From Desulfatiglandales bacterium (lineage in GTDB: Bacteria; Desulfobacterota; DSM-4660; Desulfatiglandales; Desulfatiglandaceae): a stretch of 64,000 nucleotides of DNA. How positions within the stretch are numbered: position 1 is the first letter of the stretch; each line of letters opens with the position of its first letter. Made by a program: the position numbers and the translations under genes. Positions 13,056-40,620 of the stretch are shown piece by piece. The stretch is taken from contig OY762721.1 of NCBI GenBank assembly GCA_963666345.1, positions 3,808,001 to 3,872,000 of the forward strand, given 5' to 3'. Below the pieces are notes generated by a model. It worked only from the letters and a program-made list of their open reading frames with translations. It did no database searches and had not been told where the DNA came from.

Positions 13056-13440
13056 CCCTCCGGCACCTCCGATTGTGCGTAAACAGACAGATGTCTTTAA
13101 GAGCGGGCAGGGGTGTCCCCAATTTTTCCATATAACCAGTAACGAATAACACTGCCCGTTCAAGGTGGTTACTGTTCCGGCACCGGCACTCTTTTTCCGT
13201 CCTTCTCTATTTCTTGCGGAAAAGTGACCGCATCCACGGGTTTTTGCAGGCGTTACCTTGGCTGACAGGGCACCGTAAAAGAAAGCCCGGTCTGCGGCCA
13301 CTGCTACTTCCTGTGGTATTTTTTTGTGAGATAAGACCGGGGAAAAAGCCCCGGCGCCTCCGTTTGTTTGTAAGGCAAGCAGAGATATCGGAAAACGGGC
13401 GGAGGCTTTTCACGCCTTTCTCGCCACTTATAATCAGTGA
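13056..13440 (+). repeat. Dispersed ~290-bp structured repeat, copy 1 (about 1.3 units)
   Basis: Long near-identical blocks shared with 34754-35062 and 40262-40620; the unit start ccggc(a/g)cctccg recurs at 13060 and 13351. Confidence 0.92.
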
Positions 13441-13458
13441 TGTGGAACCGTGCAAAAC

Positions 13459-13495
13459 AAGGGGCCTCCCGGATAAACCGGAAAGGCCCCTTTTC
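13459..13495. terminator. Hairpin downstream of the thiolase gene (probable terminator)
   Basis: aaggggcct-cccggataaaccgga-aaggcccctttt. Confidence 0.6.
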
Positions 13496-13524
13496 GCCTG
13501 GCAAGGAGGAGGAAAGCAGGCGTA

Positions 13525-14724
13525 TTACGAACCAACCTTGAAGATAATCGATGCCCCTGTGTCACCGGCGGCGCACCCGGCCCACAGACCGTACCCGCCG
13601 CCCATAAGGGCGAGTTCCTCTATCATTTCCATCATAAGCCTTCCCGCGGTGGGCGCCTGCGGGTGGCCGTAGATGAGAGAGCTTCCGTAGTTGTTCATCC
13701 ACATGACATCAAATCCCATCTTTTTTGCCATGTTTATGTCGTTTATCGCAAAGGGGTTATGTGTCTTGACCGCCTTGATTTCATCCATTTTGAGCCCGGC
13801 GTTTTTGAGGGCCATCTCGGCTGCGGGCACCGGGGCGGCGGCCATGTAGCCTCTCTTTGCCCTTGAAAAACCGTAGGAGACAATCTGTACGGCCATGGCC
13901 GGGTCCTTGCTCAGTTCCCTGGCCTTTTCCTTTGTAGTTACAATGAAGCCGCAGCTTCCGTCGGCAGGGTGCGTCTGCGCGCCGAAACTGTGCACCCCTC
14001 CAGGTTCCACCGACCTCAATTTGGCAAGACCTTCAGCCGTTGAAGGGGTAACCCCTTCATCTTCTTCCACAAGGATTGTCTTTTTCCTTGATATCTTTAC
14101 TTCCGCGGGAAACATATATCTTTTCTGAAAGGCCCTGTCGTCCGCCAGGGCATCCTGGTACTGTTCATATCTTCGAAAGGCCACCGCATCACATTCTTCC
14201 TTTGTGGCGCCGATTTCTTTGGCCACATTTTCGGCGGTCTGTATCATCTTGAGACCCGCATTCGGATCGCTGTTAAAGTGATCCATCATCCAGTTCTCGG
14301 AGATCACCTCTCCGCCCGGACCCATAGGGTTGGGCCATATCGTATGCGGACCGTTTGAACAGCGGTCCGTCATGAGCGCGAAGGCAGTGTCAAAACTTCC
14401 GCATTCTATGTTCACCGCGGCCAGATGAACGCATGTGGTGGAGGTGGTGCAGGCCTGGTTGATCATAAGGCCGGGAAGATCCTTTTCATTGTCAACCAGC
14501 ATGGCAGCGGCCCAGTTGTGGCTGTAAAAGAGCTCAGGCTGCCCGATGGTGATACCGAAATATAGATACTCCAGCATCTTTGGATCATAGTCGCTTGCAA
14601 GGAGCCACCTGCGGGCCGATTTTGCTCCCAGTTCTATGGAATTTTCATTCTGCATTGTGCCCTGCCAGCGGCAGAAAGGGGTTGAGTAGTAGCCCCCGTA
14701 GGGGATAAATGCCTTGTTTAACAT
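13525..14724 (-). CDS. Thiolase family protein
   Basis: NQACTTS nucleophile, GHP, CAAG; HNPF in place of NEAF. Confidence 0.9.
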   Translation of the reverse strand: MLNKAFIPYGGYYSTPFCRWQGTMQNENSIELGAKSARRWLLASDYDPKMLEYLYFGITIGQPELFYSHNWAAAMLVDNEKDLPGLMINQACTTSTTCVHLAAVNIECGSFDTAFALMTDRCSNGPHTIWPNPMGPGGEVISENWMMDHFNSDPNAGLKMIQTAENVAKEIGATKEECDAVAFRRYEQYQDALADDRAFQKRYMFPAEVKISRKKTILVEEDEGVTPSTAEGLAKLRSVEPGGVHSFGAQTHPADGSCGFIVTTKEKARELSKDPAMAVQIVSYGFSRAKRGYMAAAPVPAAEMALKNAGLKMDEIKAVKTHNPFAINDINMAKKMGFDVMWMNNYGSSLIYGHPQAPTAGRLMMEMIEELALMGGGYGLWAGCAAGDTGASIIFKVGS

Positions 14725-14918
14725 GGATGTCTACCTCCGCTTGTTAAGATATGAGTCTAAACTAAATGGTTTTTCTCCAATTCAGATTGGAGAAAAGGGT
14801 CCGAGTTCCTTTGTCTTGGCTACTGCCGGGCGCTCAGATCTTTAGAATTGTATGGCAGTTCGTTCAGACCATTGAATGATCAGGATTACAAATGCTCGAC
14901 CGGGGATGCGGCAGTCTG

Positions 14919-16499
14919 TCAGGCATCGCTCCACCTGCCGTGTTTTTCCCTCAGTATCCTGTGCAGTATCTTGCCCGTAGGGGTCCTCGGCATTTCGTCA
15001 TCCTGTATGAAGTCGATTGTCTTGGGTCTCTTGAACCCGGCCAGTTTCCCTTTGGTGAATTCGAGTATCTCCTCTGCCAGGGCCTCATCGCCCCGGTAAC
15101 CCTCGTTAAGCACAATGATTGCCTTTACCGCTTCTCCCCATTTGTCATCAGGAATACCTATGACCGCGATATCCCTTACCGCCTCATGCGCCCCGGCAAC
15201 GCTTTCCACTTCCGAGGGGTAGACATTTTCCCCACCCGTTATTATCATGTTGGCCTTTCTGTCAACCAGGACGTAGTAGCCGTCTTCATCCCGTATTACC
15301 ATGTCTCCCGCTGACGACCACTTTCCGTCAAATGCCTGTTTTGTCTTTTCAGGTTCCTTGAGGTATTCCTTGAAGAGCATGGGGGTCCTGTAAAAGAGCT
15401 CTCCCACCTGGCCATCCGGCACGTCGTTTCTATTTTCATCGAGTATCCTTATCCTGTCTGTGCCGAAGATCTCCTTGCCTATGGATCCAAGTTTCTTGAA
15501 CTGATCTTCGGGACGCAGCAGGGTGACCAGTCCGCCTTCGGTACTGCCGTAGGCCTCCCATAGTTCGGCATTCTTAAAATACTCCATTATGGCCAGTTTG
15601 AGGTCCTTTCTTGCGGGCGCCGATGAAATGAGGAGCTGGCGTATCGAACTGACGTCGATATTGCCTTTTATGTCATCAGGCAGGGCGAGCATCATTATGT
15701 AGTGGGTGGGAACCAGGGAGGTAAAGGTGATTCCGTACTTTTCAATGGTTTTGAGCAGGTCCACCGGATCGAAACTTGTCATGTTGTAGACAAAGACGGG
15801 TGCTGATACCAGGGTGTAGGGAAAGGAATAGAATATGGAATTGACATGGCACATCGGCATCACGAGCATGACCTTATCTGTGGGAAGCACCCCCATGTTT
15901 ATGTCGTTCAGGTAATACTGCGCCATGTAGCTTTCATGTGTCCTTACCACTCCCTTTGGCGTGCCGGTAGCACCGGATGTGTACATGATGGTCCAGGTGT
16001 CGTCTCCATCCACCATGATATCCGGCTCTTCGGGCGATGAACCGGCAAGCCAGTCTTCGTAACCGATATAGCCTTCAGGGACCTCTCCGTCCCCCAGATA
16101 GATATAGGCGTCGGCCGGAACAGACAGTTTGTCCCTTATGCCGTTTATAAGCTCCACAAAGGGCTTTTCAACTATAAAGGCCTTGCATTCGGAATGACTT
16201 GCTATGCGTTCGACATCAGGGGCGGCGAGCCTGAACATTATGGGGACTATTATCTGCCCCCCCTTGGCGCACCCGGCGTAGATATCCATCCATTCGCCCC
16301 TGTTGAATGCTATGACTGCAAAGGTCTCTTTGTATCCCACTCCGATACCGGCGAGCCCGTTTGCAAGGCGGCACGATCTTTCGTTCCACTGTTTGAATGT
16401 GTATTCATTGACCTTATCCTGCCACCCGAGCCTGTCAGGATAATTGACGGCATTCATCTTTAATACTGTCCCCGCATGCATCCACTTGCTGGTCGTCAT
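14919..16499 (-). CDS. Acyl-CoA synthetase (AMP-forming)
   Basis: YTSGATGTPKG, YGSTE, AGD, DRKANMIITGGENVYP, TGKI. Start placed at MTTSKW after a G-rich RBS. Confidence 0.93.
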   Translation of the reverse strand: MTTSKWMHAGTVLKMNAVNYPDRLGWQDKVNEYTFKQWNERSCRLANGLAGIGVGYKETFAVIAFNRGEWMDIYAGCAKGGQIIVPIMFRLAAPDVERIASHSECKAFIVEKPFVELINGIRDKLSVPADAYIYLGDGEVPEGYIGYEDWLAGSSPEEPDIMVDGDDTWTIMYTSGATGTPKGVVRTHESYMAQYYLNDINMGVLPTDKVMLVMPMCHVNSIFYSFPYTLVSAPVFVYNMTSFDPVDLLKTIEKYGITFTSLVPTHYIMMLALPDDIKGNIDVSSIRQLLISSAPARKDLKLAIMEYFKNAELWEAYGSTEGGLVTLLRPEDQFKKLGSIGKEIFGTDRIRILDENRNDVPDGQVGELFYRTPMLFKEYLKEPEKTKQAFDGKWSSAGDMVIRDEDGYYVLVDRKANMIITGGENVYPSEVESVAGAHEAVRDIAVIGIPDDKWGEAVKAIIVLNEGYRGDEALAEEILEFTKGKLAGFKRPKTIDFIQDDEMPRTPTGKILHRILREKHGRWSDA

Positions 16500-16572
16500 A
16501 ATACCCCCCCCTCTGTCGATTGGGTTACAGTGAGCGCCCGCCGGCACTTTCCGAGTGATACTTCCCTTGTCC

Positions 16573-19164
16573 TTACATGGCATTGGCAACAATTTCGGTG
16601 ATGTCCATTATCTTTATCTTCCCGCGTTCCTCCTTGGGGATGGCCTTTGCGCCTTTTCGAAGGTTGTCCTTGCATGCGGCACAGCCGGAAACGATAATCT
16701 CGGCTCCTACTTCAAGGGCGTCCCTGACTCTTTCTTCAGCCATGTCAACCGACATTTCAGGGTTGTTGGCGCTCACCCCGCCTCCTCCGCCGCAGCATCT
16801 GGCATGGAGCCTGTTGCGCGCCATTTCCACATATTCTAGTCCCGGTATGGCCTTGAGTATGTTTCTCGGCTCCTCAAAAATCTTGAAAGCCCTTCCAAGA
16901 TCGCACGGATCATGGTAGGTAACCTTTTTGCCCAGCTCTTTGCTGAATGTGATCTTTCCCTCATTGATAAGTCTTTCCAGATAATGCACCGAGTGGTAGA
17001 CATCAAGGCCCAGGTCTCCCACTTGAGGGTAGATCTTTTTGAAGGTCTTGTAGCAACCCGCACAGGGCGTGACGAGTTCGCGGGCACCTGTGGCCCTTAT
17101 CTTTTCAATGACCTTTTCCGCGTGTTCCTCGAAGTCGTCCGCGCCCATGAGAAAGAGCGGAAAACCGCAGCAGCCCTCGTCCGCAGCCAGTGTGGTATAT
17201 TCGATTCCTGCCTCCTCAAGAGGTTTTATAAGGCTTGGCACCATTTTCATGTCAAGATAGCTGGGCACACAACCCATGAATAGGAGCGTATCCGCCCTGG
17301 ACTTCAGCTTCCCGTTCCTTATCCTCTCCTTGAGAACAGGAGGATAGATGTCAATCCTGTCTTCTTCGGCGCTTGCATAGACATTACCTGTTTTGCCGAT
17401 ATTCTCCCTTACCGCCATGACAGGTTCAGGCGTGAGTCCGTCATTGAAGAGCTTTTTTCTGACCCCTTCGACGATTTCGTCTACCTTTACCTGGGCCGGA
17501 CAGAAGTAGGTACATGCCTGACAGGTGGTGCAGCTGTAAAATGCCTCCGCGAGGTCGGATGAAGCTGGAAGGGTACCGTAGATGTAATTAAAGGCGAGTG
17601 CATTACGGCCCCTGGCGTTTCTCGATTCCCTGTGGGTTATGCTGAATGTGGGGCAACCCAGCCTGCAGAATCCGCAGTGGATGCAGGCGATTACCTCGTT
17701 GTCGAGTTCAAGGCCGAGTGAATTGACACCTTCCGGGTGATCAAGCAGCGGCTTGAAGGCGAAGTAGTCATATATGTCGTACTTTTTCTTTTCAAGCCCC
17801 ATCTTGCCGGGATTCAGGATGTTGTTGGGGTCGAGTGCGTCCTTTATGGTCCTCATGACATCAAGCGCAGGCCCGAGCTGCTTTTCTATGTACGGCGCCC
17901 GTGCAAGTCCGGTCCCATGTTCGGCTGTCACGGTCCCGCCCATCTCGATGGCCAGATCGGCAAGTTCATCCGCGGCCGGTTTGAGTCTGTCCCATTCGTC
18001 CCTGCTTCTCATGTCGGTTACAAAGGTCGTGTGAACGTTTCCATCCCCGATGTGGCCGAATGTGGTTATGAGAAGCCGGTATTTGTCGGAGATCTCCTGC
18101 GCCCTTTTTATGACTTCGGGAATCCTTGTCGGGGGGATGCCCAGATCCTCTGAAATGGCCACGAGCCTGTTTCCCGGTTTTATCCTGGAAAGGGTAGGCA
18201 CAAGTTTTCCGCGTGCCTCCATTATCTCGGCCGCCTTGGCAGGGTCGTCACTCCATGTGAATTCCTTTACATCACGGCTCCGGCATATCTCCCTGATCCT
18301 TTCCATGTCTTTTACGACGGTTTCCTCCACGCCGTCTGACTCTATGATGAGCATGGCCTCTATGCCGGTGATGTCTCTTTCAATGGCCTTTTCAACGACC
18401 TTGAGGGAGTATTTGTCCAAGATTTCGCAGGCCGTCAACTGAATGCCTGATCCTATTATGTCCTTGACCGCATTACCCGCGGCAAACAGGTCATCGAATA
18501 TTGCCAGGGCCAGGGCGTTGTATTCAGGAACTACCTGAATCGCGACGGTTATTTGCGTTATTATGCCGAGGGTGCCTTCAGAACTCGCAAAGACCCGGTT
18601 GAGATCGTAACCGAAGGAGGATTTCGGGGTTTTGAACCCCGTTTCAATGATAGTCCCGTCGGCAAGTACCACCTTCATGGCCTTGAGATAATCCCTGGCG
18701 GTTCCATATTTGACCGCCCTGTGGCCGCTTGAGTTGGTTGACATCATGCCGCCTATGGTGGCTATCGCCTCGCTTCCCGGGTTGGGGGGGAACATAAGGT
18801 TATGTTCGGCGAGAGCCGCATTGAGCTGGTTGCAGATCACGCCCGGTTCAACGGTGGCGTAAAAGTTGTCCTTGTTTATTTCCAGGATGCTGTTCATCCT
18901 GTGGAGATCAAGCAGGATGCCGCCCTTTACCGGAAGGGAGGCGCCCGTTGTCGCGGTGCCTGAACCCTGAACCGTTACCGGCATTCCATGGCTGTTCGCG
19001 AGACTCATTATCCCTGATATCTGCTCGGTGGTAGTGGCGAATACAACGGCATCAGGAATGCCTTCGTGAACGGAAAGGTCCCTTGAATAGGAAATGCATT
19101 CAACAGGACCGGTAAAGACATTTTCCTGGCCTACGATCTGGATAATCTTAGGTATTATATCCAT
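16573..19164 (-). CDS. FAD-linked oxidoreductase (GlcD/D-LDH-like) fused to 4Fe-4S and CCG (GlcF/HdrD-like) domains
   Basis: FAD_binding_4 region, HIGDGNVH, AEHGTG, CxxCxxCxxxCP twice, CCG motifs, YHDPC. Confidence 0.9.
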   Translation of the reverse strand: MDIIPKIIQIVGQENVFTGPVECISYSRDLSVHEGIPDAVVFATTTEQISGIMSLANSHGMPVTVQGSGTATTGASLPVKGGILLDLHRMNSILEINKDNFYATVEPGVICNQLNAALAEHNLMFPPNPGSEAIATIGGMMSTNSSGHRAVKYGTARDYLKAMKVVLADGTIIETGFKTPKSSFGYDLNRVFASSEGTLGIITQITVAIQVVPEYNALALAIFDDLFAAGNAVKDIIGSGIQLTACEILDKYSLKVVEKAIERDITGIEAMLIIESDGVEETVVKDMERIREICRSRDVKEFTWSDDPAKAAEIMEARGKLVPTLSRIKPGNRLVAISEDLGIPPTRIPEVIKRAQEISDKYRLLITTFGHIGDGNVHTTFVTDMRSRDEWDRLKPAADELADLAIEMGGTVTAEHGTGLARAPYIEKQLGPALDVMRTIKDALDPNNILNPGKMGLEKKKYDIYDYFAFKPLLDHPEGVNSLGLELDNEVIACIHCGFCRLGCPTFSITHRESRNARGRNALAFNYIYGTLPASSDLAEAFYSCTTCQACTYFCPAQVKVDEIVEGVRKKLFNDGLTPEPVMAVRENIGKTGNVYASAEEDRIDIYPPVLKERIRNGKLKSRADTLLFMGCVPSYLDMKMVPSLIKPLEEAGIEYTTLAADEGCCGFPLFLMGADDFEEHAEKVIEKIRATGARELVTPCAGCYKTFKKIYPQVGDLGLDVYHSVHYLERLINEGKITFSKELGKKVTYHDPCDLGRAFKIFEEPRNILKAIPGLEYVEMARNRLHARCCGGGGGVSANNPEMSVDMAEERVRDALEVGAEIIVSGCAACKDNLRKGAKAIPKEERGKIKIMDITEIVANAM

Positions 19165-19260
19165 TTCTTGACCTCCTCAGCCGGTTTTAAGACATCTGGA
19201 AGAAAACAAAGTGGGGAAATGGAAAGTAAACAATTATGGCTATTATTTAGCTATAAAGTG

Positions 19261-19290
19261 ACTATAAAACAGCGCTGAAGGGCTTGTCAA
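19261..19290 (-). promoter_or_regulatory. Putative sigma70 promoter for the oxidoreductase-ligase-thiolase operon
   Basis: TTGACA-18 nt-TATAGT on the minus strand. Confidence 0.55.
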
Positions 19291-19390
19291 GTCAAATAAC
19301 CTGCAGCATAACCAAGTTGATGGAAGATCGATAATAGAATACCGGGCGCGATTATGGAAACGTGTATAATGTGGATTATATCATGTTTTT

Positions 19391-21394
19391 CTAATCAGGG
19401 GATCTTATTTCCAGCTGTTTTTTCTCAAGCCCTTTGATCCTGTCACGATATTGAGCCGCTTTTTCAAAATCAAGTCCGGCGGCAGCCTCCTTCATCTTCT
19501 CTGTGATTTCTGAGATCATGTCGTCAAGATCTTCGGGAGTTGCATAAAATGCCTCATCCTCAGCCGCCATGGGAAGATCCACATAGTCGGCTTCATAGAC
19601 CGAACTCAATATATTCCGGATGTTTTTACGTATGGAGGTAGGTGTAATGCCGTTCAGGCGGTTGTATTCCCCCTGGCGGCTCCGCCGCCTGTCGCTTTCC
19701 TCGAGGGTACGCCTGATGGATTCGGTCAGCCTGTCCGCATAAAGGACGACCGTTCCGTTTACATTTCTTGCGGCCCTGCCGCAGGTCTGTATCAGGGATC
19801 TCTCTGATCTCAGAAATCCCTCCTTGTCTGCATCCAGGATCGCCACGAGGGAGACTTCGGGAAGGTCAAGCCCCTCTCTGAGCAGATTTATCCCTACTAG
19901 GACGTCAAAAAGGCCCAGCCTCAGGTCCCTGATGATTTCCATCCTCTCTATGGTCTTGATGTCGGAGTGCATATAACGAACGCGCACGTTAAGTTCGGAA
20001 TAGTATTCCGTGAGATTTTCGGCCATTATTTTTGTAAGGGTCGTAACAAGGACCCTTTCATTTTTTTCCGCCCTCTGTCTTATCAGCCCGAGGAGATCGT
20101 CAACCTGATTTGAGGCGGGCCTTATAATGATTTCAGGGTCCAGAAGACCTGTGGGCCTTATTATCTGCTCGGCAGTCATCTGAGTAACTTCAAGCTCGTA
20201 ATGCCCGGGTGTGGCGGAGACATAAATGGTCTGAGGCACCCTTTCCCTGAATTCCTCGAATTGAAGAGGCCTGTTATCCAGGGCCGAGGGGAGTCTGAAT
20301 CCGTAATTTACAAGGGTTTCCTTTCTGGATCGGTCTCCCCTGTACATCCCGTTCAACTGAGGTATGGTGATATGGCTTTCATCTATGATGACAAGGAAAT
20401 TTTTAGGAAAATAATCGAGCAGAGTGGGTGGCGGTTCTCCCTGGTTCCTTCCCGTAAGGTGCCGCGAATAGTTCTCTATGCCGTGACAGTAACCCACCTC
20501 CAGCATCATTTCCAGATCGAAAAGCGTCCGTTCTTCAATCCTCTGGGCCTCCAGGAGCTTGTCCCGAGACCTTAAATATCGAAGCCTATCCTTCAACTCC
20601 TCCTTTATCCCGGTTATGGCACGCTCTCTTATCTTTGTGGTGGTGACATAGTGGCTGGCGGGGTAGACGGTTATCCTGCCAAGGTCCTGAATGATCTTCC
20701 CTGTCAGCGGATCTATCTCCTTTATCTCCTCCACCTCGTCTCCGAAGAAGCATAGCCTAACGGCCCTGTCTTCCTCGTGAACCGGATAAATGTCCAGTAT
20801 GTCGCCCCTTACACGGAACCTGCCCCTGAAAAAATCTATCTCACCTCTTTCATAGTGGATCTCGACTAGCTTTTTGACCGCATCATCCCTTGAAAGAAGA
20901 GAGCCCTTTTCCACGTATAAGAGCATGTCATGATACGCTTCAGGGGATCCCAGTCCATATATGCATGACACGCTTGCCACTATGATGACATCATCCCTGT
21001 CCAGAAGGGATCTGGTCGCGGCATGGCGCATCTTGTCTATCTGTTCGTTAATGGAGGAATCCTTCTGGATATAGGTATCCGACTGGGGTATGTATGCCTC
21101 GGGCTGATAATAGTCATAGTAACTGACAAAGTATTCCACGGCATTTTGAGGGAAAAGATTTTTGATCTCTCCATATAGCTGGGCTGCAAGGGTCTTGTTG
21201 GGCGCCATTATCAGAGTGGGTTTCTGTGCCTTGGCAATGACATGCGCCATGGTGAACGTCTTGCCAGATCCCGTCACTCCCAACAGCACCTGGTGCGACA
21301 GTCCCTTATCTATTCCCTCTGAGAGCAGACTTATGGCGTTGGGTTGATCACCGCACGGTGTCAGGTCGGTAACAAGAGAAAAGGGTGCGCCCAT
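19391..21394 (-). CDS. uvrB: Excinuclease ABC subunit B
   Basis: [27 protein letters not shown]-terminal UVR domain. Confidence 0.98.
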
Positions 21395-21580
21395 TTGACT
21401 ATTCCGTTTAAGACTGTTTGATTATGGAAACCCATGTTGTCCGGGTGTTTTTTGCCCCCGGTCGCGGCTTCCGTAACAAACAACCGATTAATGGCAGGAC
21501 AAAAAAATATCCCGGAAAAATTAACAGGAGGCATCGCCTCCTGATTTTTTATCTCCGAAATTAGGTGTGCAAAGACTCGG

Positions 21581-22078
21581 CTACAGGTCCCTGTTATTGC
21601 GAGGTGCCGCTACAAGGCTTGCAACCGCATATGCCTCTATACCTTCAAGCCGGCCGCAAAAACCCATCTTTTCCGTGGTCGTGGCCTTTATGCTGACTAA
21701 GGATTTATCGGATTTGAGCGCCCCTGAAATATTTGTTTTCATGCCGTCAATGTATGTCGAAAGCATCGGTTCCTGGGCGCAGATGGTGGAATCGATATTG
21801 TTTACGCCGAAGCCCTCCCTTTCAGCCATCTCCATTACATTTTCAAGGAGGGATATACTTGAAGCACCTTTGTACAGCGGGTCCTTGTCAGGAAAATGTT
21901 TGCCTATATCGCCCAATGCAAGGGCCCCTAAAATGGCGTCCATAATGGCGTGGGTAAGCACGTCGGCGTCACTATGCCCCTCAAGCCCGAACGCATGAGG
22001 GATATTTATCCCGCCCAGGATAAGAGGCCTGCCCTTTACCAGACGGTGCGCGTCGTATCCAAAACCTATTCGAAACAA
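21581..22078 (-). CDS. ispF: 2-C-methyl-D-erythritol 2,4-cyclodiphosphate synthase
   Basis: RIGFGYDAH, GHSDADV, DIGKHFP, KATTTEKMG. Confidence 0.96.
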   Translation of the reverse strand: MFRIGFGYDAHRLVKGRPLILGGINIPHAFGLEGHSDADVLTHAIMDAILGALALGDIGKHFPDKDPLYKGASSISLLENVMEMAEREGFGVNNIDSTICAQEPMLSTYIDGMKTNISGALKSDKSLVSIKATTTEKMGFCGRLEGIEAYAVASLVAAPRNNRDL

Positions 22079-22225
22079 ATTACCCTCTTAAGAATATAAG
22101 CTGTTTGCGAAGATCGATGCGAGTGTCTTCCTTTGATCCGGGATTACAGCCGCTCAGTTACGGATTATCCGCTTGTTTTGTCTGACAAGCTTCAAATCTG
22201 ATCGGGAGATGACCCATGACTTATT

Positions 22226-22453
22226 CTAGTGGCATGTACTGCAGTTTCCACCGGAACAGGAGGCGCAAGCGGAAGAAGATGAACCTGAAGAGTCGATTGA
22301 TTCTTCGCCTTTGCTCTTAAATCCGCAGGCGGAAATGAGCCGCTCCAGTTTTTCCCCGTCGCATTGCGGGCAGCAGATCTTGCCGCTGCTTTTAAAGACA
22401 AGTGCCTCAAATTCATTTTCGCAGTCGAGGCATCTGAATTCATATATAGGCAT
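22226..22453 (-). CDS. FmdB family zinc-ribbon protein
   Basis: MPIYEFRCLDC...CPQC, C-terminal CASCSGGNCSTC. Confidence 0.88.
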   Translation of the reverse strand: MPIYEFRCLDCENEFEALVFKSSGKICCPQCDGEKLERLISACGFKSKGEESIDSSGSSSSACASCSGGNCSTCH

Positions 22454-22476
22454 AGAAAATCCTTTCCTTGTTTGTT

Positions 22477-23424: not shown

Positions 23425-23436
23425 ATCATTCCACTG

Positions 23437-26731: not shown

Positions 26732-26808
26732 GGTGGGTGTAGCTCAGTTGGTAGAGCACTGGGTTGTGGCCCCAGTGGTCGAGGGTTCAAGTCCCTTCAC
26801 TCACCCCA
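26732..26808 (+). tRNA. tRNA-His (GTG)
   Basis: G-1 plus GTGGGTG acceptor, anticodon loop ttGTGgc, GTTCAAGTC T-loop, encoded CCA. Confidence 0.97.
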
Positions 26809-32384: not shown

Positions 32385-32495
32385 CACTTCCATCCCGGTG
32401 AGGTTCAAAAAATCTTGAATTAAAATTTATCAGGCCTCTTCATATCCGTTTAACAGGGGGATCATGAGAGTCGCTGTGCAGCAGACAGGAGGCCT

Positions 32496-33668
32496 TCAAC
32501 CCTGCATTATCTGTCTTATACCTCTTACTGCCTGGTTTATGCGGTGATGGTTTTCCACGAGTGCGAAACGGACATATTCATCTCCGTACTCTCCGAAACC
32601 CTTTCCAGGGGATACGGCAACCTTTGCCTCTTTTATCATCATCTCAGAGAAGGCTATCGACCCCATTTTCCTGAACTGCTCGGGCAATTTGGCCCATACG
32701 AACATGGTCCCCTTCGGCTTCTCCACCTCCCAGCCGACCCGGTTCAACCCGTTCACCAGGGCATCACGCCTCTCCCTGTAGACGTCCACTATCTCGTTGA
32801 CGCAATTATCCGGACCGTTGAGAGCAATGATCGCTGCTATCTGTATAGGTTGAAACATGCCGTAGTCAAGATAGCTTTTTATCCTTCTCAGGGCTGCCAC
32901 CATCTCCGGATTACCCACGCAGAATCCGACACGCCATCCGGCCATGGAATAGCTTTTTGTGAGACTGTATGTCTCGACTCCAATGTCCTTTGCCCCGGGT
33001 ATCTCAAGAAAACTGGGGGGCTTGTACCCGTCGAATACCAGATCCGCGTATGCAAAGTCGTGAATGACCATCATATTATGCTCTTTGCAGAAGTCCACTA
33101 TCTTTTCAAAGAACTCCCTTTCCACCACCTCTGTCGTGGGGTTATGCGGATAGGATACGATAAGCATCTTTGGACTGGGCCAGGTCTGTTTGGTTGCGTT
33201 CAGCAGGTCTTCAAAAAAATCCCTGTCAGGGCCTATGGGAATGCTTCTCAGATCACCTCCTGCTATAATCACAGAATAGGGGTGAATAGGATATGTGGGG
33301 TTGGGTGCAAACACCACATCTCCCGGGCTGATGGTTGCCAGTACCAGGTGGGCAAGACCTTCTTTTGATCCGATAGTCACTATAGCTTCGTCATCCGGGT
33401 CAAGATCCACGTCAAAACGCCTTTTGTACCAGCTGCATATGGCTTGACGAAGCTTGGTTATCCCCTTGGAAGCGGAATAACGATGATTCTGACCCTTCCG
33501 GGCGGCTTCAACGAGTTTTTCAACTATATGTTTGGGGGTAGGGATGTCGGGGTTACCCATTCCCAGATCTATTATATCCTCGCCTCTGTGCCTTGCCTCC
33601 ATCTTGATTTTATCCACGGCGGCAAAGACATAGCGGGGGAGCCTGTCCATCCTTCTGAATTCATGCAT
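32496..33668 (-). CDS. Class I/II PLP aminotransferase (AlaC/YfdZ-like)
   Basis: [33 protein letters not shown]. Confidence 0.92.
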
Positions 33669-33851
33669 AGCGTCCTAACTCCTTGACATAATATTAAGGC
33701 CACGTGCCTTGTGTCTTAATGATTTTTTCCCTTTGTAACGAAACAAGGCCGATATTATAACGGCCTTAACCCAATAACGACTTTGTTTGAGTTTCGTACA
33801 CTATACCAGAGCAGAGAAAAAATCAAAAACTAAGTGAGGTATGGGGGCCGC

Positions 33852-34259
33852 TCATAAATTATCAGGTATGACGGACCTGGTTATCTTTTCCATTTCTGAA
33901 ATAACCGAGGCATCCTGTCTTGAAGGGGCAACCCTCTTTTTATATTCCAGTACCACGATTTCGGCTACGATATCATTGAACCTGAGAGTGCCGCGCTCCC
34001 TTTCAGCCTTTTCCCCGGCCTTCGAAAGGATTTCGACTATCTCCTCTTCCTTGTGCTGTATCCTTGTCGTGAGGGCCTTTAGATAAAGCTCCTGTTTACT
34101 AAGTCCGGGATTGGCCTTTTTGACCGTGTTAAAGGCCATCAACTGCTGCTTTGCTATCATTTTCGCAAAGGCATGAGGATTTTTCGGGGAAGACTTCACG
34201 CCCAGTATTATGAGACAAAGCACTACCGCCGAGATAATGACAACTACGATGCTAATCAT
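33852..34259 (-). CDS. Hypothetical membrane-anchored protein
   Basis: N-terminal hydrophobic helix; overlaps the stop of the upstream ORF. Confidence 0.65.
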   Translation of the reverse strand: MISIVVVIISAVVLCLIILGVKSSPKNPHAFAKMIAKQQLMAFNTVKKANPGLSKQELYLKALTTRIQHKEEEIVEILSKAGEKAERERGTLRFNDIVAEIVVLEYKKRVAPSRQDASVISEMEKITRSVIPDNL

Positions 34260-34662
34260 CCTTTTTTTCTTCTACCTCTTTTTGCATCTTGAAATCGTCA
34301 AGTCCGTCCCTCCAGCTGAGCATTGAGGAATCGCATTCCAGACCCGGTGTGGAAGGCGGAATGTATGGTGGTTTCTTTTCTAAAAAGGGGTCGAGGGCGT
34401 GTCCCTTCATAAAACCCCATTTCCACCTGGCGAATCTCAAAACCTGAAGCAGCAGATAGGGTCCGAATACAAAAAAATAGAATATCCACATGTTGCCCCT
34501 GAGAAGGGCGCGAAGCGAGTCATATCCCTCTACAAGGGATTCATTCCTGGGCATTTCGCCGAAAATCGCCAGAATGAGTATGAACGTGGTGGGAATAATC
34601 ACCGCCCCAAAGGAGATGGCGCAGATGAATATCAACGATTCGTTTGCAAGTTTCTTTTTCAT
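34252..34662 (-). CDS. Hypothetical membrane protein
   Basis: Two hydrophobic segments; purine-rich RBS. Confidence 0.6.
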   Translation of the reverse strand: MKKKLANESLIFICAISFGAVIIPTTFILILAIFGEMPRNESLVEGYDSLRALLRGNMWIFYFFVFGPYLLLQVLRFARWKWGFMKGHALDPFLEKKPPYIPPSTPGLECDSSMLSWRDGLDDFKMQKEVEEKKDD

Positions 34663-34753
34663 GTCCCTTTTTCCTATTTTTATCCGGACTAGTCAACTTT
34701 TTTGGATGAATCTGACCTGTCGGGTATATAATCCTGTATGTAAAAATGTCTGT

Positions 34754-35062
34754 CGCTCCGGCACCGGCAATTTTTCTCCGGCCTTCTCTATACCTTACGG
34801 AAAGGTGTCCGCATCCCCGGGCTTTTGCAGGCGTTACCTTGGCTGACAGGGCACCCGGGAAAGAAAGCCTGTCTGCGGCCACTATTGCTTCCTGTGGTAT
34901 TTTTTTGTGAGAGAAGACCGGAAAAAGTGCCCCGGCACCTGCGCTCGTTAGTGAGGCAGGCAGAGATATTAAAAAAACGGTCGGTTGGCTTTTCCCGCAT
35001 TTCACGTCTTTCTCTCCCACTTATAACCGGTAACGAATAACGGTGTCCGATCAGGTGGCGGT
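34754..35062 (+). repeat. Dispersed ~290-bp structured repeat, copy 2 (permuted end points)
   Basis: Starts mid-unit (ctccggcaccggca) and continues through the unit junction to tataaccggtaacgaataac. Confidence 0.9.
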
Positions 35063-35063
35063 C

Positions 35064-35092
35064 TTGACACTCAGCCCCCTTTTTTCTATGCT
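35064..35092 (+). promoter_or_regulatory. Putative sigma70 promoter for the IscU-like gene
   Basis: TTGACA-17 nt-TATGCT. Confidence 0.65.
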
Positions 35093-35173
35093 CACCTGAT
35101 CTGTCAATCGATCCAGAAACCGTGAAATTTGAGCAGAGGACGGAATAAACCCAATAGCAGGGAAAGATGTTTT

Positions 35174-35578
35174 ATGGGAAGAAATGAAGGTGGTTTCGAT
35201 TTTCTGCAGGATCACTCTATGCGCTATCTGGAAATGGCACTCAGGACCGACAGGTGCGAAAGGCCCGAAAATGCCGATGGATACGGCAAAAAGAAGGGGG
35301 AGTGCGGTGATACTGTGGAGATGTTTATCAGCATTAAAGACGCCCGCATAATTGCGATCAGCTTCATGACCGACGGGTGCATGAGCACAAATGCGTGTGC
35401 CAATACGGTCGCTCAGCTTGCTGAAGGCAGGGGCATGGAGGAGGCCTGGGAGATTACACCTGAAGATCTATCAGGGTATCTTGAGACACTGCCTCGGGAG
35501 AATTTCCATTGTGCCGAACTGGCCGTTGGGACCTTTTACATGGCCCTTGCCGATGCCGGCAGAAAATCGAATCCCTGA
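35174..35578 (+). CDS. IscU/NifU-like Fe-S scaffold protein
   Basis: GECGDTV, DGCMSTNAC, HCAELAV. Confidence 0.85.
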   Translation: MGRNEGGFDFLQDHSMRYLEMALRTDRCERPENADGYGKKKGECGDTVEMFISIKDARIIAISFMTDGCMSTNACANTVAQLAEGRGMEEAWEITPEDLSGYLETLPRENFHCAELAVGTFYMALADAGRKSNP

Positions 35579-35649
35579 TGCATGGAACCCGCCATGGGAA
35601 AAAGCCGAATCGGCTTTTCTTTTTTTAATCCATAAACGAGGCCGGCCTT

Positions 35650-36783
35650 ATGGCGGACGATATCTACCGAAGATTGGCATTATACCTTGACAGCCTTCCG
35701 GGTGGATTTCCATCTACTGAAAGCGGTGTGGAAATACGTATACTGCAAAGACTTTTCAGCCCCATGGAAGCGGACCTTGCGATGCATTTGACCCTTATAC
35801 CGGAGGAATCCAAGGTTATCGCCGCAAGGGCCGGCATGACTGTTGAAGAGGCCGAAAAACGGCTGGAGCAGATGGCCTTGAAGGGACTGCTTTTCAGGAT
35901 AGAGCTGAAAAGACGGCCGCCCCTTTATATGTCCGCCCAGTATGTTATCGGTATATGGGAATATCACCTGAACGACCTTGACCCACAGCTTATAAGGGAT
36001 ATGAATGAATATATACCGACCCTGTTTGATCTTAAGGCATGGAAAAAGGCCCCTCAGCTGCGAACCATACCTGTCAATAAAAGCCTGACCGTCCGGCAGG
36101 ACATTATGCACTATGAAGATGCAAGAGAGCTTGTTACCTCCAAAAGGAAGATCATTGTCGCACCCTGTATCTGCAGGCGGGAGCACAAGATGATAGGTGA
36201 AGGATGCGGAAAAGAGGATGAGACATGCCTTGTATTTGGATTGGGTGCCGAATATTATCACAAAAACGGCCTGGGACGCTTCATAGACAGCACTGAGGCC
36301 CTTGAGATACTTGAAAAGGCCGATAAGGAGGCCCTGGTTCTTCAGCCCAGTAACGCAAAGAAGATCGTCAATATCTGCTGCTGTTGCGGTTGCTGCTGTC
36401 AGGTTTTAAGGAGTTTCAAACGATACCCGAGACCATCCGATCTGGTGTCATCTCCCTTCAGGGCGGAACTCAAGACGGCTGACTGCGAGGGGTGCGGGGT
36501 CTGTGTCGAACGCTGTCAGATGGATGCATTGAGGCTTGAACAAGGCGTGGCGGTCCTTGACGGCGACAGGTGTATAGGCTGTGGCCTCTGCGTCACTACC
36601 TGTCCTACCGGCGCATTAAAGCTGGTGCGTAAGCCTGAGAAGGATCAGCCCAGGGTCCCCGGAAATATGACGGAGGCCTATATAAGGCTTGGAAAGGCCA
36701 GGGGAAAAATGAGCAACACGAGCCTTGTTAAGATGCAGCTTAAATCAAAACTCGACAGGCTTATGGCATCAGGTAAAAAATAA
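35650..36783 (+). CDS. 4Fe-4S dicluster protein with N-terminal wHTH-like region
   Basis: CICR, NICCCCGCCC, CEGCGVCVERC, CIGCGLCVTTCP. Confidence 0.85.
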   Translation: MADDIYRRLALYLDSLPGGFPSTESGVEIRILQRLFSPMEADLAMHLTLIPEESKVIAARAGMTVEEAEKRLEQMALKGLLFRIELKRRPPLYMSAQYVIGIWEYHLNDLDPQLIRDMNEYIPTLFDLKAWKKAPQLRTIPVNKSLTVRQDIMHYEDARELVTSKRKIIVAPCICRREHKMIGEGCGKEDETCLVFGLGAEYYHKNGLGRFIDSTEALEILEKADKEALVLQPSNAKKIVNICCCCGCCCQVLRSFKRYPRPSDLVSSPFRAELKTADCEGCGVCVERCQMDALRLEQGVAVLDGDRCIGCGLCVTTCPTGALKLVRKPEKDQPRVPGNMTEAYIRLGKARGKMSNTSLVKMQLKSKLDRLMASGKK

Positions 36784-36788
36784 TTATT

Positions 36789-37940
36789 TTGAGAAAGGTT
36801 TATGTTTTGACTCCTGTTTCCATCGTTAGGTGTAAAAGTTATGATCCTGATGCGGTCGATGAGGCGGTGCGCCGGGCAACCGAACTGCTGGGAGGTATAT
36901 CCAGATATGTAAAAAAGGGGGACAGGGTGCTCTTAAAGCCTAATCTGCTTTCCGCGCGCAAGCCTGAGAAGAGAGTGACTACCGATCCTGAAGTAGTTCG
37001 TGCCGTGGCCATGATGGTAATTGAGGCGGGCGGAAAACCTTTTATCGGAGACAGCCCCGGCATAGATTCGTTCAAGCGGGTTGCCGTAAAATCAGGTATG
37101 GCAGGGGTAGCGGAAAGACTTTCGATTGAATGTGTGGAATTGAGAGATCCAAGGCCTGTGGGCGCGATTGAAGGGGCTGAGTTCAAAAATCTGGAGATAG
37201 CTTCCCAGGCGCTTGAGGCCGATGTGGTTATCAATCTTCCCAAGCTTAAGGCCCACTGCCAGATGGGTCTCACCCTGGGCGTCAAGAACCTCTTCGGTAC
37301 CATAGTGGCGCAGAGAAAGGCTGAATGGCACCACATGGCAGGTGTTGACAGGGACATCTTCGCCTCACTTCTGCTGGACATCTACAGGGGCGTCGGTCCT
37401 TCCCTGACAATAGTCGACGGTGTTTGGGGGATGGAGGGAAACGGACCTTCAAACGGAATCCCCCGGAAACTCGATATGATTGCGGCATCAGAGGACTGTG
37501 TGGCTCTTGATATGGCCGTATGCAGTATACTGAGGGTGCCTTTATCTTCATTTCCTCTGTACAGGGCTGCCAGAAAAAGGGGTATCGGTGAGACCAACCT
37601 TCAGGGAATAGAATTCAGAGGGGATTCGCCTGATTCTCTTTCCGTCAAAGATTTCATCGTCCCGGAGCTGGATTCATTGAACCTGCTGCCTGGCGGGTTT
37701 GACTGGTTTACCAAGCGTTTTCTCGTTTCAAAACCTGTTCAGGATGATGGAAGGTGCGTAAGGTGCGGGCAGTGCGCCGAGATCTGTCCGGTTGATGCGA
37801 TAGAGGTGGGTGAAAAACATTTCCACATGGATTACGACAGGTGCATTCGCTGTTACTGCTGCCAGGAGATATGCCCGCAAGATGCCATCAGGTTCAGAAA
37901 AGGGCTCCTGGTGAGGTTCCTGAACCGCATAAGTCGTTGA
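36789..37940 (+). CDS. DUF362 domain protein with C-terminal ferredoxin
   Basis: VLLKPNLL, TTDP, INLPKLKAH, KNLFG, MEGNGP, two CxxCxxCxxxCP motifs. Confidence 0.9.
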   Translation: MRKVYVLTPVSIVRCKSYDPDAVDEAVRRATELLGGISRYVKKGDRVLLKPNLLSARKPEKRVTTDPEVVRAVAMMVIEAGGKPFIGDSPGIDSFKRVAVKSGMAGVAERLSIECVELRDPRPVGAIEGAEFKNLEIASQALEADVVINLPKLKAHCQMGLTLGVKNLFGTIVAQRKAEWHHMAGVDRDIFASLLLDIYRGVGPSLTIVDGVWGMEGNGPSNGIPRKLDMIAASEDCVALDMAVCSILRVPLSSFPLYRAARKRGIGETNLQGIEFRGDSPDSLSVKDFIVPELDSLNLLPGGFDWFTKRFLVSKPVQDDGRCVRCGQCAEICPVDAIEVGEKHFHMDYDRCIRCYCCQEICPQDAIRFRKGLLVRFLNRISR

Positions 37941-38024
37941 CGTTGATCGGAGGCAAGGTCCGAACATATTAGCCAGGTGGGTATTCAGGCGCTGCACGCT
38001 TTAACCTGATTTCGTGAGCCGTTT

Positions 38025-39215
38025 TTATCCCAACCAATCCCTTTTAAGCCTGGAAAACCCGCCTTGCCTGATTGCGCTTCGGATGTCTTTCATGAGGGCT
38101 TCAACAAAGTAATGATTATGGATGGCGGCGAGCCTTGGAGCCAGCAGCTCTTTTGCCATGAAAAGATGCCTGAGATATGCCTTTGTATAGTTCATGCAGG
38201 TGTAACAGGCGCAACCCTCTTCTATGGGCGAGAGGTCCTCTCTGAAAGCCGAGTTCAAGATGTTTATCCTGAACCGTTTTGATCTCCTGTTGAAGAGTGT
38301 GCCGATACGTGCCATAAGAGAAGGCGTTATGCAGTCAAACATATCGATCCCCCTTTCAACCACCTCGAATATGTCCTCAATCTCTCCGATACCGAGCAGG
38401 TGCCTCGGCTTTTCAGGGTCAAGATTCGGCAGGGTCCAGTCAAGGATCCTATGCATATCCTCTTTGGATTTTCCCAGTGAACCCCCTATGGCGTAGCCGT
38501 CGAAACCCAGGCTCGAGATGAAGGTGCTGCTCTTTTCCCTGAGATCCCTGTAGGGACCTCCCTGGACAATTCCGAAAAGGGACTGCGAAGGGGCCGAAAG
38601 CTCATCGAATTTTTCAAGCGAGCGAAGCGCCCATCGATGGGTACGATTCAGGGCGGACAGGGTGTGTCCGTAGCTGTGGAGAGGTGAGGTGCATTCGTCC
38701 AGCACCAGGATGATGTCGGCTCCCAGCCTGGTTTCTATCTCTATTACATGCTCAGGCGTAAAAAAATGAACTGATCCGTCCAGATAGGAGCGAAATTCCA
38801 CTCCATCTTCTCCCACTTTTACCAGGGGGCCTTTACCCTCAATGGACCTCTGTTTGAGTCCTGTTTGTTCCGGAAAAACAGATGCGATCTTGCCCACACC
38901 CTGTTCCCTTCCGGCGCCCAGACTGAAAATCTGAAATCCGCCGGAATCCGTCATAAGAGGACCTTTCCATCTCATAAAGGGGTGAAGACCGCCCATCCGC
39001 TCGATCAATCCCTCTCCCGGCCTGAGGTGCAGATGGTAGGTGTTTGCTATTATCACCCTGGTCCCCGTCAGTTCGAGATCAGCGGGGCAAAGACCCCTTA
39101 CTGCACCCAGCGTCCCCACGGCAACATATGACGGCGTGTCGATTATTCCATGGGGTGTTATTATCTTGCCGGCCCTTGCCCTGCTTTCCGTGGAAAGGAT
39201 CCTGAATGAACTCAT
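38025..39215 (-). CDS. tgt: tRNA-guanine transglycosylase
   Basis: NTYHL, TDSGGFQ, LDEC, VQGG, IGGSLG, HLLGIG, DMFDC, CACYTC...H zinc site. Confidence 0.95.
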   Translation of the reverse strand: MSSFRILSTESRARAGKIITPHGIIDTPSYVAVGTLGAVRGLCPADLELTGTRVIIANTYHLHLRPGEGLIERMGGLHPFMRWKGPLMTDSGGFQIFSLGAGREQGVGKIASVFPEQTGLKQRSIEGKGPLVKVGEDGVEFRSYLDGSVHFFTPEHVIEIETRLGADIILVLDECTSPLHSYGHTLSALNRTHRWALRSLEKFDELSAPSQSLFGIVQGGPYRDLREKSSTFISSLGFDGYAIGGSLGKSKEDMHRILDWTLPNLDPEKPRHLLGIGEIEDIFEVVERGIDMFDCITPSLMARIGTLFNRRSKRFRINILNSAFREDLSPIEEGCACYTCMNYTKAYLRHLFMAKELLAPRLAAIHNHYFVEALMKDIRSAIRQGGFSRLKRDWLG

Positions 39216-40177
39216 CAGTAGAAAACGCCTATGGTCCTGTGGTACGGTTTTATCCTGTAGTCATCGGTCTGCCCGAGATTCCATAAAATCCAGTCTATGT
39301 CAAATGCTTTCAATCTTGTCCCTCTCTGCTTCAGCCGTCTCATTATCAACTCTGAAGCCCATATGGTGTTTGCCCTTATCTCGACTTCTTCCCGGCTTCC
39401 CGGCTCCAGTAGAATCATATGTTCAACCTTCCTGGCAAGTTCGGGGGAGTATGCCAGGATATCCAGATGCCTGAGTACCTGGGGAAGTTTGTAGTCGGCA
39501 AAGACCGTGAGGCTGTCGATGTCGGTAAACCTGCCCCATTTTTTCCCCTTGAAGGCGCCGCATATATCGGCTGAGATGATCTGGGCTCTCTTGTAAAAAA
39601 AGACCCGCCTGTGTTTAAAAATCGCCTCATCGCGATAAGAGAAAAGCTCTTTTGCAAGGTTCCTGGCAAGACAAAGCGCGGAGTTTCCAGCTTCCTCGAC
39701 AATCCCTGCGGCCCTGCCCTGATACTTCTTAAGGAGAAGGAGCCCGAGTTCATTCAGCGCTCCCACTCTTTCGTCAAGGAGTTGAAGCCGGCCTTCAGTG
39801 CCGAATATCTTTTGTAACCCTTGTGTGTCAAGAGAAGTGAGAAATTCCGCATCGTCCATAGGTACGCCCGATTCCATCGCATTTTTCAGCGCTGCTGCAA
39901 GGGCGTTGTAACCTGAAAGGTTTTTCCCTCCATATCTGAAGGTCCATGGTTTTTGATCCGGGCCGGGCCAGAAGCAGAAGTTGATTGTGTCAAGCGCCAG
40001 GAGGTAGGCAACGGTTTTCTCCGAGCCGTCATAGAAGTGATGCCTGTAATCCCATGGAGGTGCTTTAAGTGAGCCGGAATCAAGCCTTTTAACGAATCTA
40101 TCCAGCGCCTTTATGTTTATACGGACCAGGCTTCCATTTTCGGCAACAAATTCGGCTGATTCCAGGACTTCCTGCAT
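39215..40177 (-). CDS. Queuosine salvage hydrolase (Qng1/DUF2419 family)
   Basis: LDTINFCFW, GY, FYKRAQI, LTVFADYKLPQVL, EVEIRA, IDWILW, PYHRTIGVFY. Confidence 0.92.
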   Translation of the reverse strand: MQEVLESAEFVAENGSLVRINIKALDRFVKRLDSGSLKAPPWDYRHHFYDGSEKTVAYLLALDTINFCFWPGPDQKPWTFRYGGKNLSGYNALAAALKNAMESGVPMDDAEFLTSLDTQGLQKIFGTEGRLQLLDERVGALNELGLLLLKKYQGRAAGIVEEAGNSALCLARNLAKELFSYRDEAIFKHRRVFFYKRAQIISADICGAFKGKKWGRFTDIDSLTVFADYKLPQVLRHLDILAYSPELARKVEHMILLEPGSREEVEIRANTIWASELIMRRLKQRGTRLKAFDIDWILWNLGQTDDYRIKPYHRTIGVFY

Positions 40178-40261
40178 GGTTTAGGAGTCTTTCCCTCCTT
40201 TATTTTTTATCAAATCACAATCATTTTTATAACATTTTTGGCTGGATAGGGAAAGAAGAGA

Positions 40262-40620
40262 CCCCTCCGGCACCTCCGTTTGTGTGTAAACAAACAGGGG
40301 CTTTCAAGGACGGGCAGGGATGTCCCGGTTTTTCCGTATAACCAGTAACGAATAACTCTGCCGGATCAGGCAGTTACCGCTCCGTCACCGGCACTTTTTC
40401 CCCGGTCTTCTCTATTCCTTACGGAAAAGTAGCCGCATCCCCGGGCTTTTGCAGACGTTACCTTGGCTGATATGGCACCGTGGAACAAAGCCCTGTCTGC
40501 GGCCACTGCTACTTCCTGTGGTATTTTTTTGTGAGATAAGACCGGGGAAAAAATCCCGGCACCTCCGTTTGTACTTTAACAGCCGGTTTTGCAGGAAAAT
40601 GGGCAGGGAATACCTGCCCA
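40262..40620 (+). repeat. Dispersed ~290-bp structured repeat, copy 3 (about 1.2 units)
   Basis: ccggcacctccgtttgt occurs at 40267 and 40556; near-perfect internal inverted repeat at 40390-40413 and 40533-40554. Confidence 0.92.

Follow-up and report, generated by a model that had tools for sequence, protein, structure and literature searches.

What is the repeat that recurs in three intergenic gaps of a Desulfatiglandales bacterium, and how did it spread without an evident transposase? The window analysed here, a 64,000-nucleotide stretch of the genome, holds copies at 13056-13440, 34754-35062 and 40262-40620, which match one another in blastn with E-values down to 1e-83. Their shared blocks and common + orientation are as the preliminary description gave them. 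A whole-genome search, which that description had proposed, identifies the three as members of a larger dispersed family, with 34 full 188-bp cores and 10 partial cores in the 4.16-Mb host genome (96.7% complete). The explanation we prefer, and to which we give about an even chance, is a MITE-derived hairpin whose shell and transposase are missing here, with one founder multiplied by fork-linked local copying and trimmed by slippage.

Units, linkers and core boundaries

Each unit joins a core, which makes up ~64% of its length, to a linker of ~105 bp (range 93-129 bp) that forms the ragged part of the unit. The head-to-tail unit seen earlier in the window is real, measuring about 282-318 bp in four arrays, one trimer and three dimers. 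Copies share a median identity of 78%, and the units of the trimer are 97.5-99.5% identical. The parts of the window copies are collected in Table 1. We further note that the gap between the transketolase and queuosine-salvage genes measures 461 bp with copy 3 versus 1-51 bp in six relatives. The GGATTCAA-type octamers that abut copy 1 are a separate repeat, and their arrays away from cores take the leading orientation in 40 of 76 cases.

Table 1. Parts of the three repeat copies and of the adjoining octamer array, in window positions
Feature	Positions	Strand	Remarks
GGATTCAA-type short octamer repeats, abutting copy 1	13006..13047	+	separate genome-wide repeat, no strand bias
Copy 1 arm-to-arm junction (the earlier "unit start")	13056..13074	+	likely scar of a deleted core
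Copy 1 full linker, 103 bp, with TAACNRR heptamers	13075..13177	+	locus u3821178
Copy 1 core, 188-bp rod hairpin	13178..13365	-	190.8 bits; family-wide, minus is the better-folding strand
Copy 1 downstream linker, partial	13366..13440	+	
Copy 2 core, from the conserved left boundary	34755..34946	-	179.2 bits; ~10 bp of upstream linker
Copy 2 downstream linker, almost full	34947..35062	+	0.89 of a linker
Copy 3 arm-to-arm junction and full 101-bp linker	40263..40382	+	
Copy 3 core, in the transketolase / queuosine-salvage gene gap	40383..40570	-	195.7 bits
Copy 3 downstream linker remnant, short	40571..40620	+	

The copies had been taken for circularly permuted pieces of this unit, a view that the family as a whole does not bear out. 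Outer ends in the host genome are ragged and the core is unbroken in 34 of 34 full copies, while the missing part of a partial core lay within 500 bp in none of 10 cases. Among the 25 non-tandem copies the upstream linker length does not complement the downstream one (Spearman +0.25), and 24% have a linker-length sum near one unit (p = 0.81). The supposed unit start, CCGGC[AG]CCTCCG, does recur, at 13060 and 13351 (291 bp) and at 40267 and 40556 (289 bp), and there the two core arms meet across the direct repeat CCGGCACC, which is present at both core ends. Its recurrence is best read as an arm-to-arm junction left by a deleted core; at C1 3425895, 458297 and 2099084 the products of deletion between microhomologies can be seen. 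The permuted look may then reflect core-linker-core arrays minus one core, lost between CCGGCACC repeats at the hairpin base. Copy 2 starts at the core boundary, 34755, and continues through its linker to ~35062.

Other features reported from the window extend to the family in part. The repeat is indeed gene-less and non-autonomous, without fixed outer ends or target duplication: its ends are ragged, and no repeat longer than 3 bp was found at the ends of the 11 short-ended copies checked. Scattered 1-base indels in the cores led us to reject a coding role. The window copies all sit upstream of minus-strand genes, but this is not a genome-wide rule, as 20 of 35 copies are so placed, near the background of gaps.

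A conserved rod hairpin and its shells in relatives

The core is a covarying rod hairpin of ~190 bases with a central bubble and with unpaired motifs conserved across three families, and its better-folding strand is the window minus strand. In the minus-strand rod, 24 of 38 pairs have changed on both sides, and 88% of cells pair versus 40-50% for slid partners. G-U exceeds A-C on this strand by 71 to 34 in the unfitted alignment and by 155 to 59 with model fitting (77 of 83 model-fitted rows), and folding of the minus-strand DNA gives z = -5.8. RNAalifold on the plus strand returns a weak consensus with 3 covarying pairs, and the hand-built minus-strand rod is better. Slippage alone does not easily account for a fold conserved across three families despite sequence divergence.

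Alternatively, such a rod might function as a structured RNA or, by binding RNA polymerase, as a promoter mimic (6S-like or Frpo-like); it would be maintained by selection acting on the host and spread passively by any vehicle that takes it up. We consider this quite unlikely. The central bubble, the strong covariation and the conserved unpaired motifs would suit this reading, as would a -35/17-nt/extended -10-like arrangement, which is the top-scoring site and identically placed in 34 of 77 copies, and the failure to detect a canonical 6S in the host genome or in 74 family members. However, the promoter-like score is not above that of shuffles (10.7 vs 10.3), the site falls on the worse-folding strand, and a strict promoter scan finds nothing in copy 3. 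In family f3, moreover, 16 of 17 genomes have a canonical single-copy 6S alongside the core (at the zapA-rny locus in both that were checked), and the 6S profile fails to match the cores (E at least 0.19, on the opposite strand). The core is also patchily distributed: of 148 other genomes of the order 37 have it, and of 150 others sampled across the phylum none does, with copy numbers from 1 to over 100 per genome; 12 of 35 host-genome copies lie between divergent genes, where read-through is absent. One RNA run covers a small share of the window in scattered short contigs from which strand and level are not readable.

Homology to 6S RNA, suggested by a resemblance, was rejected: RF00013 is unmatched, and at zapA-rny, the conserved 6S locus of this order, true 6S is found in f3 but no core stands in the host genome. 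A retrozyme or group II intron derivative was likewise set aside, as Rfam returned neither a hammerhead core nor an intron domain V; in alignment A2 the letters after the CTGA motif vary and depart from the hammerhead consensus. The search matched no Rfam family, and none had been recognised from the letters.

Homologues in relatives were reached only via profile and covariance models. Copy 1 gave no match when 40 relatives were searched in blastn fashion, nor did a search of plasmids, phages and viral contigs for the repeat; two weak R1 matches (G049 and G058) were judged spurious on inspection. In many relatives the core lies inside MITEs with ISH6-family ends and 8-bp target duplications, and the same terminal repeat bounds 1582-1584-bp elements encoding a 460-aa transposase (transpos_ISH6, 457 bits against a cut-off of 240). 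Among 38 elements in relatives with both ends found, 11 have an exact 8-bp AT-rich duplication, and these duplications agree with the ISH6-family target, stated as AANATNTT (PMC3942029). By their shared terminal repeats and 8-bp duplication, the elements that hold the relatives' cores are ISH6-family MITEs. An IS66-type identity of the MITE ends was considered and replaced by ISH6. The autonomous ISH6 element itself carries no core, and the short 80-170-bp ISH6 shells are mostly internal deletions rather than empty acceptors of the core. The core has at least three kinds of flank and also occurs without any. Its dispersal and carriage by MITEs across the order speak against the earlier suggestion that it is a relic of a tandem ncRNA array.

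The host-genome copies differ from ISH6-family MITEs in their ends, in duplication and in cognate transposase. The ISH6 end motif has one lone 1-mismatch match in the host genome, not at a core, and tblastn with the 460-aa transposase finds nothing there at E 0.01. We regard it as improbable that all copies are ordinary ISH6 MITEs inserted long ago, with shells since eroded and transposase lost. The ISH6 shells of relatives fit this account, the linker length is near that of two joined MITE flanks, and a loose scan matches the copy 2 linker to the end motif with 3 mismatches. Yet thirty independent shells are unlikely all to have eroded to one and the same boundary around a core still 78% alike, and a shell is also missing from the recent tandem arrays, which are 97-99.5% identical. 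The shelled family of another genome (G129) is, furthermore, unpolarised, whereas that of the host genome is polarised.

Ancestry, replication polarity and mode of spread

The 11 host-genome copies sampled for a core tree form one clade (100/100). Shell labels, which come from loose motif detection that mislabelled one host-genome copy, are scattered over the tree with at least 8 changes; the tree is unrooted for the direction of change, and loss of the shell is the best reading. The closest relative of a copy lies a median of 83 kb away (p = 0.0005, 29 loci), a local clustering for which gene conversion could be another source. Orientation relative to replication is common to 27 of 30 loci (p = 8e-6), with ori and ter placed by GC skew because DnaA-box clustering failed to locate the origin, and this polarity is independent of flanking gene direction. 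By local skew it amounts to 31 of 35 copies in the host genome versus 17 of 30 in shelled G129 (Fisher p = 0.005), an assembly scaffolded with N runs in which 30 of 43 matches were scored. In 32 of 35 copies the strand written + in the window serves as lagging-strand template; the better-folding strand is the leading-strand template. Same-species metagenome loci, found by a core motif, are filled in 12 of 12 cases, with no polymorphic empty site seen among them. Run X7 contains a sister strain of ~97% identity.

Under the explanation we prefer, a conserved 190-base hairpin, which often rides ISH6-type MITEs in relatives, would have persisted without its shell in the host genome. Head-to-tail core-plus-linker units would be copied locally in association with the replication fork, probably through template switching or illegitimate recombination aided by the hairpin and the short linker repeats; the link to the fork is likely. 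Slippage deletions would trim the units afterwards. Polarity may arise at insertion, or through more frequent deletion of the orientation that places the better-folding strand on the lagging-strand template.

A rather unlikely alternative is that the core is a single-stranded element independent of any autonomous shell: an HUH enzyme (IS200/RAYT-type) or a reverse transcriptase, working in trans, would copy concatemers or circles of core plus linker and insert pieces of them at the lagging-strand template. It is a corrected form of an idea in the preliminary description. The strand bias fits, the lagging-strand template being the target of IS608 and ISDra2 (PMC6006769), and ragged ends, absent duplications and tandem units are all compatible, as is the presence of the core in several flank kinds and flank-free. 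The host genome has 17 Y1/HUH matches, two reverse transcriptases and one IS110, so that an enzyme could act in trans; six tnpA copies of IS200 type, nearly identical to one another, and three RAYT-like genes are present. However, a check for such neighbours, proposed earlier, lists no Y1, reverse transcriptase or IS110 match within 5 kb of a full core, and the core is unlike the IS200-type and RAYT ends that were seen. Unit-length permutation and split cores are absent, and the better-folding strand is the opposite template strand. Of eight end-to-start joins of ISH6 MITEs, compared with the linker as candidates for its origin in a decayed circle junction, two resemble it weakly (7 of 200 shuffles score as high) and the other six are at chance level; a back-going joint from 35032 to 34773 in a sister-strain DNA run would suit a circle or concatemer, but is explained equally well by a tandem copy.

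It is also conceivable, but unlikely, that the 200-base rod is a self-contained mobile module and so represents a new class of bacterial short interspersed element. If so, a host or transposon enzyme would recognise its fold, or RNA polymerase would use it as a primer-making hairpin, and the module would board different MITE shells as well as spread naked, as single-stranded concatemer pieces at the fork.

Relation to known repeat systems

By the usual view a MITE needs nothing but its ends. In the present repeat, however, conservation lies in the inner hairpin, which compensatory change has maintained across three families and which travels in different shells; one genome has amplified it to ~35 copies without a shell. 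Should the fold be mere cargo, the result is a repeat family that is well mapped but ordinary, in uncultured bacteria of the sulfate-reducer type. We found no description of the family in the literature covered, mostly open-access journals, and it had also been thought undescribed from the window.

One close relation is to ISH6-family (p-MULT 2) insertion sequences, such as ISDesp5 (PMC3942029), and their MITEs, since the core of relatives lies between the terminal repeats of the 1.58-kb ISH6 element. The host-genome copies, in contrast, are polarised and tandem and have no terminal repeats, duplications or transposase. The rod of ~190-200 nt with a central bubble recalls 6S RNA (RF00013), but there is no covariance-model match and the copies are many and dispersed. 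One arm has promoter-like spacing as in Frpo, an ssDNA hairpin promoter (PMC12672017), but here its score is at chance level.

The bcr1 repeat of the Bacillus cereus group is likewise lineage-restricted and gene-less, with a fold kept by compensatory changes and variable positions; it is 155 bp long and is set apart by 5-bp direct repeats, a cruciform fold and transcription (PMC3184786). The likeness is one of description. A strand bias is also known for bcr1. REP/BIME and PATE repeats are modular, sometimes tandem intergenic hairpins moved by HUH tyrosine transposases, with a replication polarity as in IS200/IS605. The orientation tied to replication is similar here, but the hairpin measures ~190 bp against 20-40 bp in theirs, no RAYT or tnpA adjoins it, it has no fixed cleavage end, and its ends are unlike. 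With a tested shelled family that is unpolarised and a shell-less one that is strongly polarised, the present family offers a natural experiment on the spread of structured repeats that have no cognate transposase, a question it shares with bcr1-like and REP-like repeats.

Repeat units, core fold and outer ends

All three repeats of the preliminary description are present in the window. The 'unit start' motif of that description returns at a spacing of 291 bp in copy 1 and of 289 bp in copy 3. The proposed head-to-tail unit is real: a trimer with a period of 293 bp, its units 97.5-99.5% alike, and three dimers resolve it into a 188-bp core plus a linker of 93-129 bp. Across the 4.16-Mb single-contig genome, an iterated profile finds 44 loci (34 full 188-bp cores and 10 partial), with a median identity of 78% between copies. 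The stretch of the contig from ~3.85 Mb across 0 to 1.12 Mb, which surrounds the terminus inferred from skew, has no full core, and 21 of the 35 fall at 1.2-2.1 Mb. As anticipated, no Rfam family matches the window or the eight loci searched.

The fold of the core is conserved. In 25 sequences, a rod built by hand on the window minus strand shows changes on both sides at 24 of 38 pairs, with pairing in 88% of cells vs 40-50% for slid partners; the shuffle control for this test is inflated by relatedness, and the structure was drawn from the same sequences. On this strand G-U exceeds A-C, by 71 to 34 in the unfitted alignment and by 155 to 59 in 77 of 83 model-fitted rows (the six weakest were dropped, five of them reverse-strand self-matches). 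Small hairpin modules bearing CTGAGCG sit inside core arms, in either arm and either orientation, and seem to be a repeat targeting a repeat.

Circular permutation of the copies, as had been proposed, gains no support from comparison of end points. No outer end falls inside the core (34/34 full copies intact), the absent part of a partial core is never found within 500 bp (10 partial cores), and upstream and downstream flanks do not sum to one linker (25 non-tandem copies, p = 0.81). Copy 2, said to begin mid-unit, begins at the core and has no break inside it. The outer ends are indeed not fixed: copies have ragged flanks of 2-129 bp upstream and 5-106 bp downstream and measure 195-407 bp in total, and the reported lack of target-site duplication extends to the copies of this genome. 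CCGGCACC is present at both ends of the core; in copies 1 and 3, and at contig positions 1209158, 1907883 and 441999, 'unit start' consists of left-arm and right-arm letters joined across CCGGCACC, and further cores are deleted between other microhomologies. We infer that these arm-to-arm junctions are deletion scars.

Coordinates of repeats and other features (C1, contig OY762721.1; L-numbers, loci from relatives)
Feature	Sequence	Position	Remark
Repeat copy 1	window	13056-13440	
Repeat copy 2	window	34754-35062	
Repeat copy 3	window	40262-40620	
tRNA gene	window	26733-26805	
tRNA gene	window	63061-63145	
tRNA gene	window	63161-63250	
RAYT-like Y1 transposase gene	C1	1930193-1931134	own inverted repeats, unrelated to core
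RAYT-like Y1 transposase gene	C1	2026896-2027915	own inverted repeats, unrelated to core
RAYT-like Y1 transposase gene	C1	3692874-3693674	
Lone IS110-family gene	C1	2029044-2030400	GGATTCAA-type octamer array ~280 bp downstream, possibly its target
525-aa reverse transcriptase-like gene adjoining long ORF and IS200 copy	C1	3778444-3782002	ORF presumably with SIR2-like motifs; looks like a defence locus
zapA-rny gap	C1	1292453-1292900	canonical 6S RNA not detected
CTGAGCG module in core	C1	3800080-3800175	
CTGAGCG module in core	C1	3492300-3492404	
CTGAGCG module in core	L290		
CTGAGCG module in core	L315		
CTGAGCG module in core	L259		
CTGAGCG module in core	L289		
CTGAGCG module in core	L093		
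ISH6 element abutting a reverse transcriptase frame of group II intron type	L273	2848-3495	frame truncated by the element

The core and its ISH6 shell in relatives

With a covariance model, the core is detected in 20 of 104 further genomes of the family, 37 of 148 of the order and 0 of 150 sampled from the phylum, with at most 145 matches in one genome. In one relative genus (g53) and in the relative G129, the core lies within elements of 266-350 bp that end in terminal inverted repeats and are flanked by AT-rich 8-bp duplications. The same terminal repeat flanks 1582-1584-bp elements encoding a 460-aa protein above the ISH6 cut-off (457 vs 240 bits); this IS itself holds no core. Among elements having both ends, 11 of 38 show an exact 8-bp duplication. 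The core's vehicle in relatives is often an ISH6 MITE, its shell being of ISH6 and not IS66 type, and other genera carry the core with different flanks or none. The shell recurs in records titled Deltaproteobacteria, Desulfobacterales or Desulfatiglandales, and at L299, L271 and L091 its cargo is a different, unrelated hairpin (330-345 bp). According to PMC3942029, the duplicated ISH6 target is AANATNTT, ISDesp5 of Desulfobacterium is a named example, and circular intermediates are proposed for the superfamily.

Polarity, local kinship and spread

The copies of this genome are unlike their shelled relatives: they are shell-less, polarised and locally related. The ISH6 transposase was not found in the genome, nor the shell terminal repeat at its cores. 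Eleven sampled copies form one clade, and the nearest kin of a copy lies at a median of 83 kb (p = 0.0005; Mantel p = 0.04; 29 loci). With ori at ~2.155 Mb and ter at ~0.136 Mb, both from GC skew, 32 of 35 copies (27 of 30 loci, p = 8e-6) share one orientation relative to replication, independent of flanking gene direction, and the leading-strand template is the strand of better fold. The three misoriented copies all lie <170 kb from ori. By local skew, 31/35 are so oriented here vs 17/30 in shelled G129 (p = 0.005); the 7-mer and 8-mer repeats found in and next to the linker are not polarised where they occur away from cores.

Comparison with orthologous sites, suggested earlier, identifies copy 3 as an insertion. 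Transketolase adjoins the queuosine-salvage gene in 8 of 29 relatives' loci, with a gap of 1-51 bp in six of these vs 461 bp at copy 3; the other two gaps (717 and 1052 bp) read like a further gene. Same-species metagenome loci, picked by the core motif, are filled in 12 of 12 cases.

We give about even credence to a MITE core that, having no shell, would multiply by local copying linked to the replication fork, with slippage trimming core-plus-linker copies and polarity arising on insertion or through retention. Hairpin folding and loss governed by orientation to replication are described for attC sites (PMC5371416), and orientation bias for many IS families (PMC3971601). Spread by an enzyme-driven single-strand route seems less likely. 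The genome encodes 17 Y1 matches, two reverse transcriptases and one IS110, but of such genes, suggested earlier as possible neighbours, none stands closer than 5 kb to any full core, and the enzyme-gene ends examined are unlike the core. Two of eight ISH6 end-to-start joins weakly resemble the linker, and a sister-strain DNA run holds one back-going joint, which a tandem copy would also give. Frpo-type promoters are described in PMC12672017. That the core is a functional RNA or promoter mimic is distinctly improbable, for although the rod shape fits, RF00013 gives no match, the promoter-like score is at chance level, and 16 of 17 family-f3 genomes hold a separate true 6S to which the core has no similarity. 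Canonical 6S RNA was detected neither in this genome nor in any family-f1 (0/74) or family-f6 (0/48) genome, and may be lost or strongly diverged across most of the order.

Comparison with known systems

New here are the negative outcome of the permutation test, the asymmetry between strands in folding, the contrast in polarity between shelled and shell-less copies, the local kinship and the empty orthologous site. Tests of membership separated the copies of this genome from ISH6 MITEs (by terminal repeat, duplication and transposase) and the core from 6S RNA (by RF00013 and the f3 6S), REP/BIME and retrozymes. No description of the core family was found in the literature searched, which covered part of the field through main texts. 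Multicopy repeats of unknown function are reported from Geobacter (PMC2700814), and the core family behaves much as bcr1 and further structured interspersed repeats do (PMC3184786).
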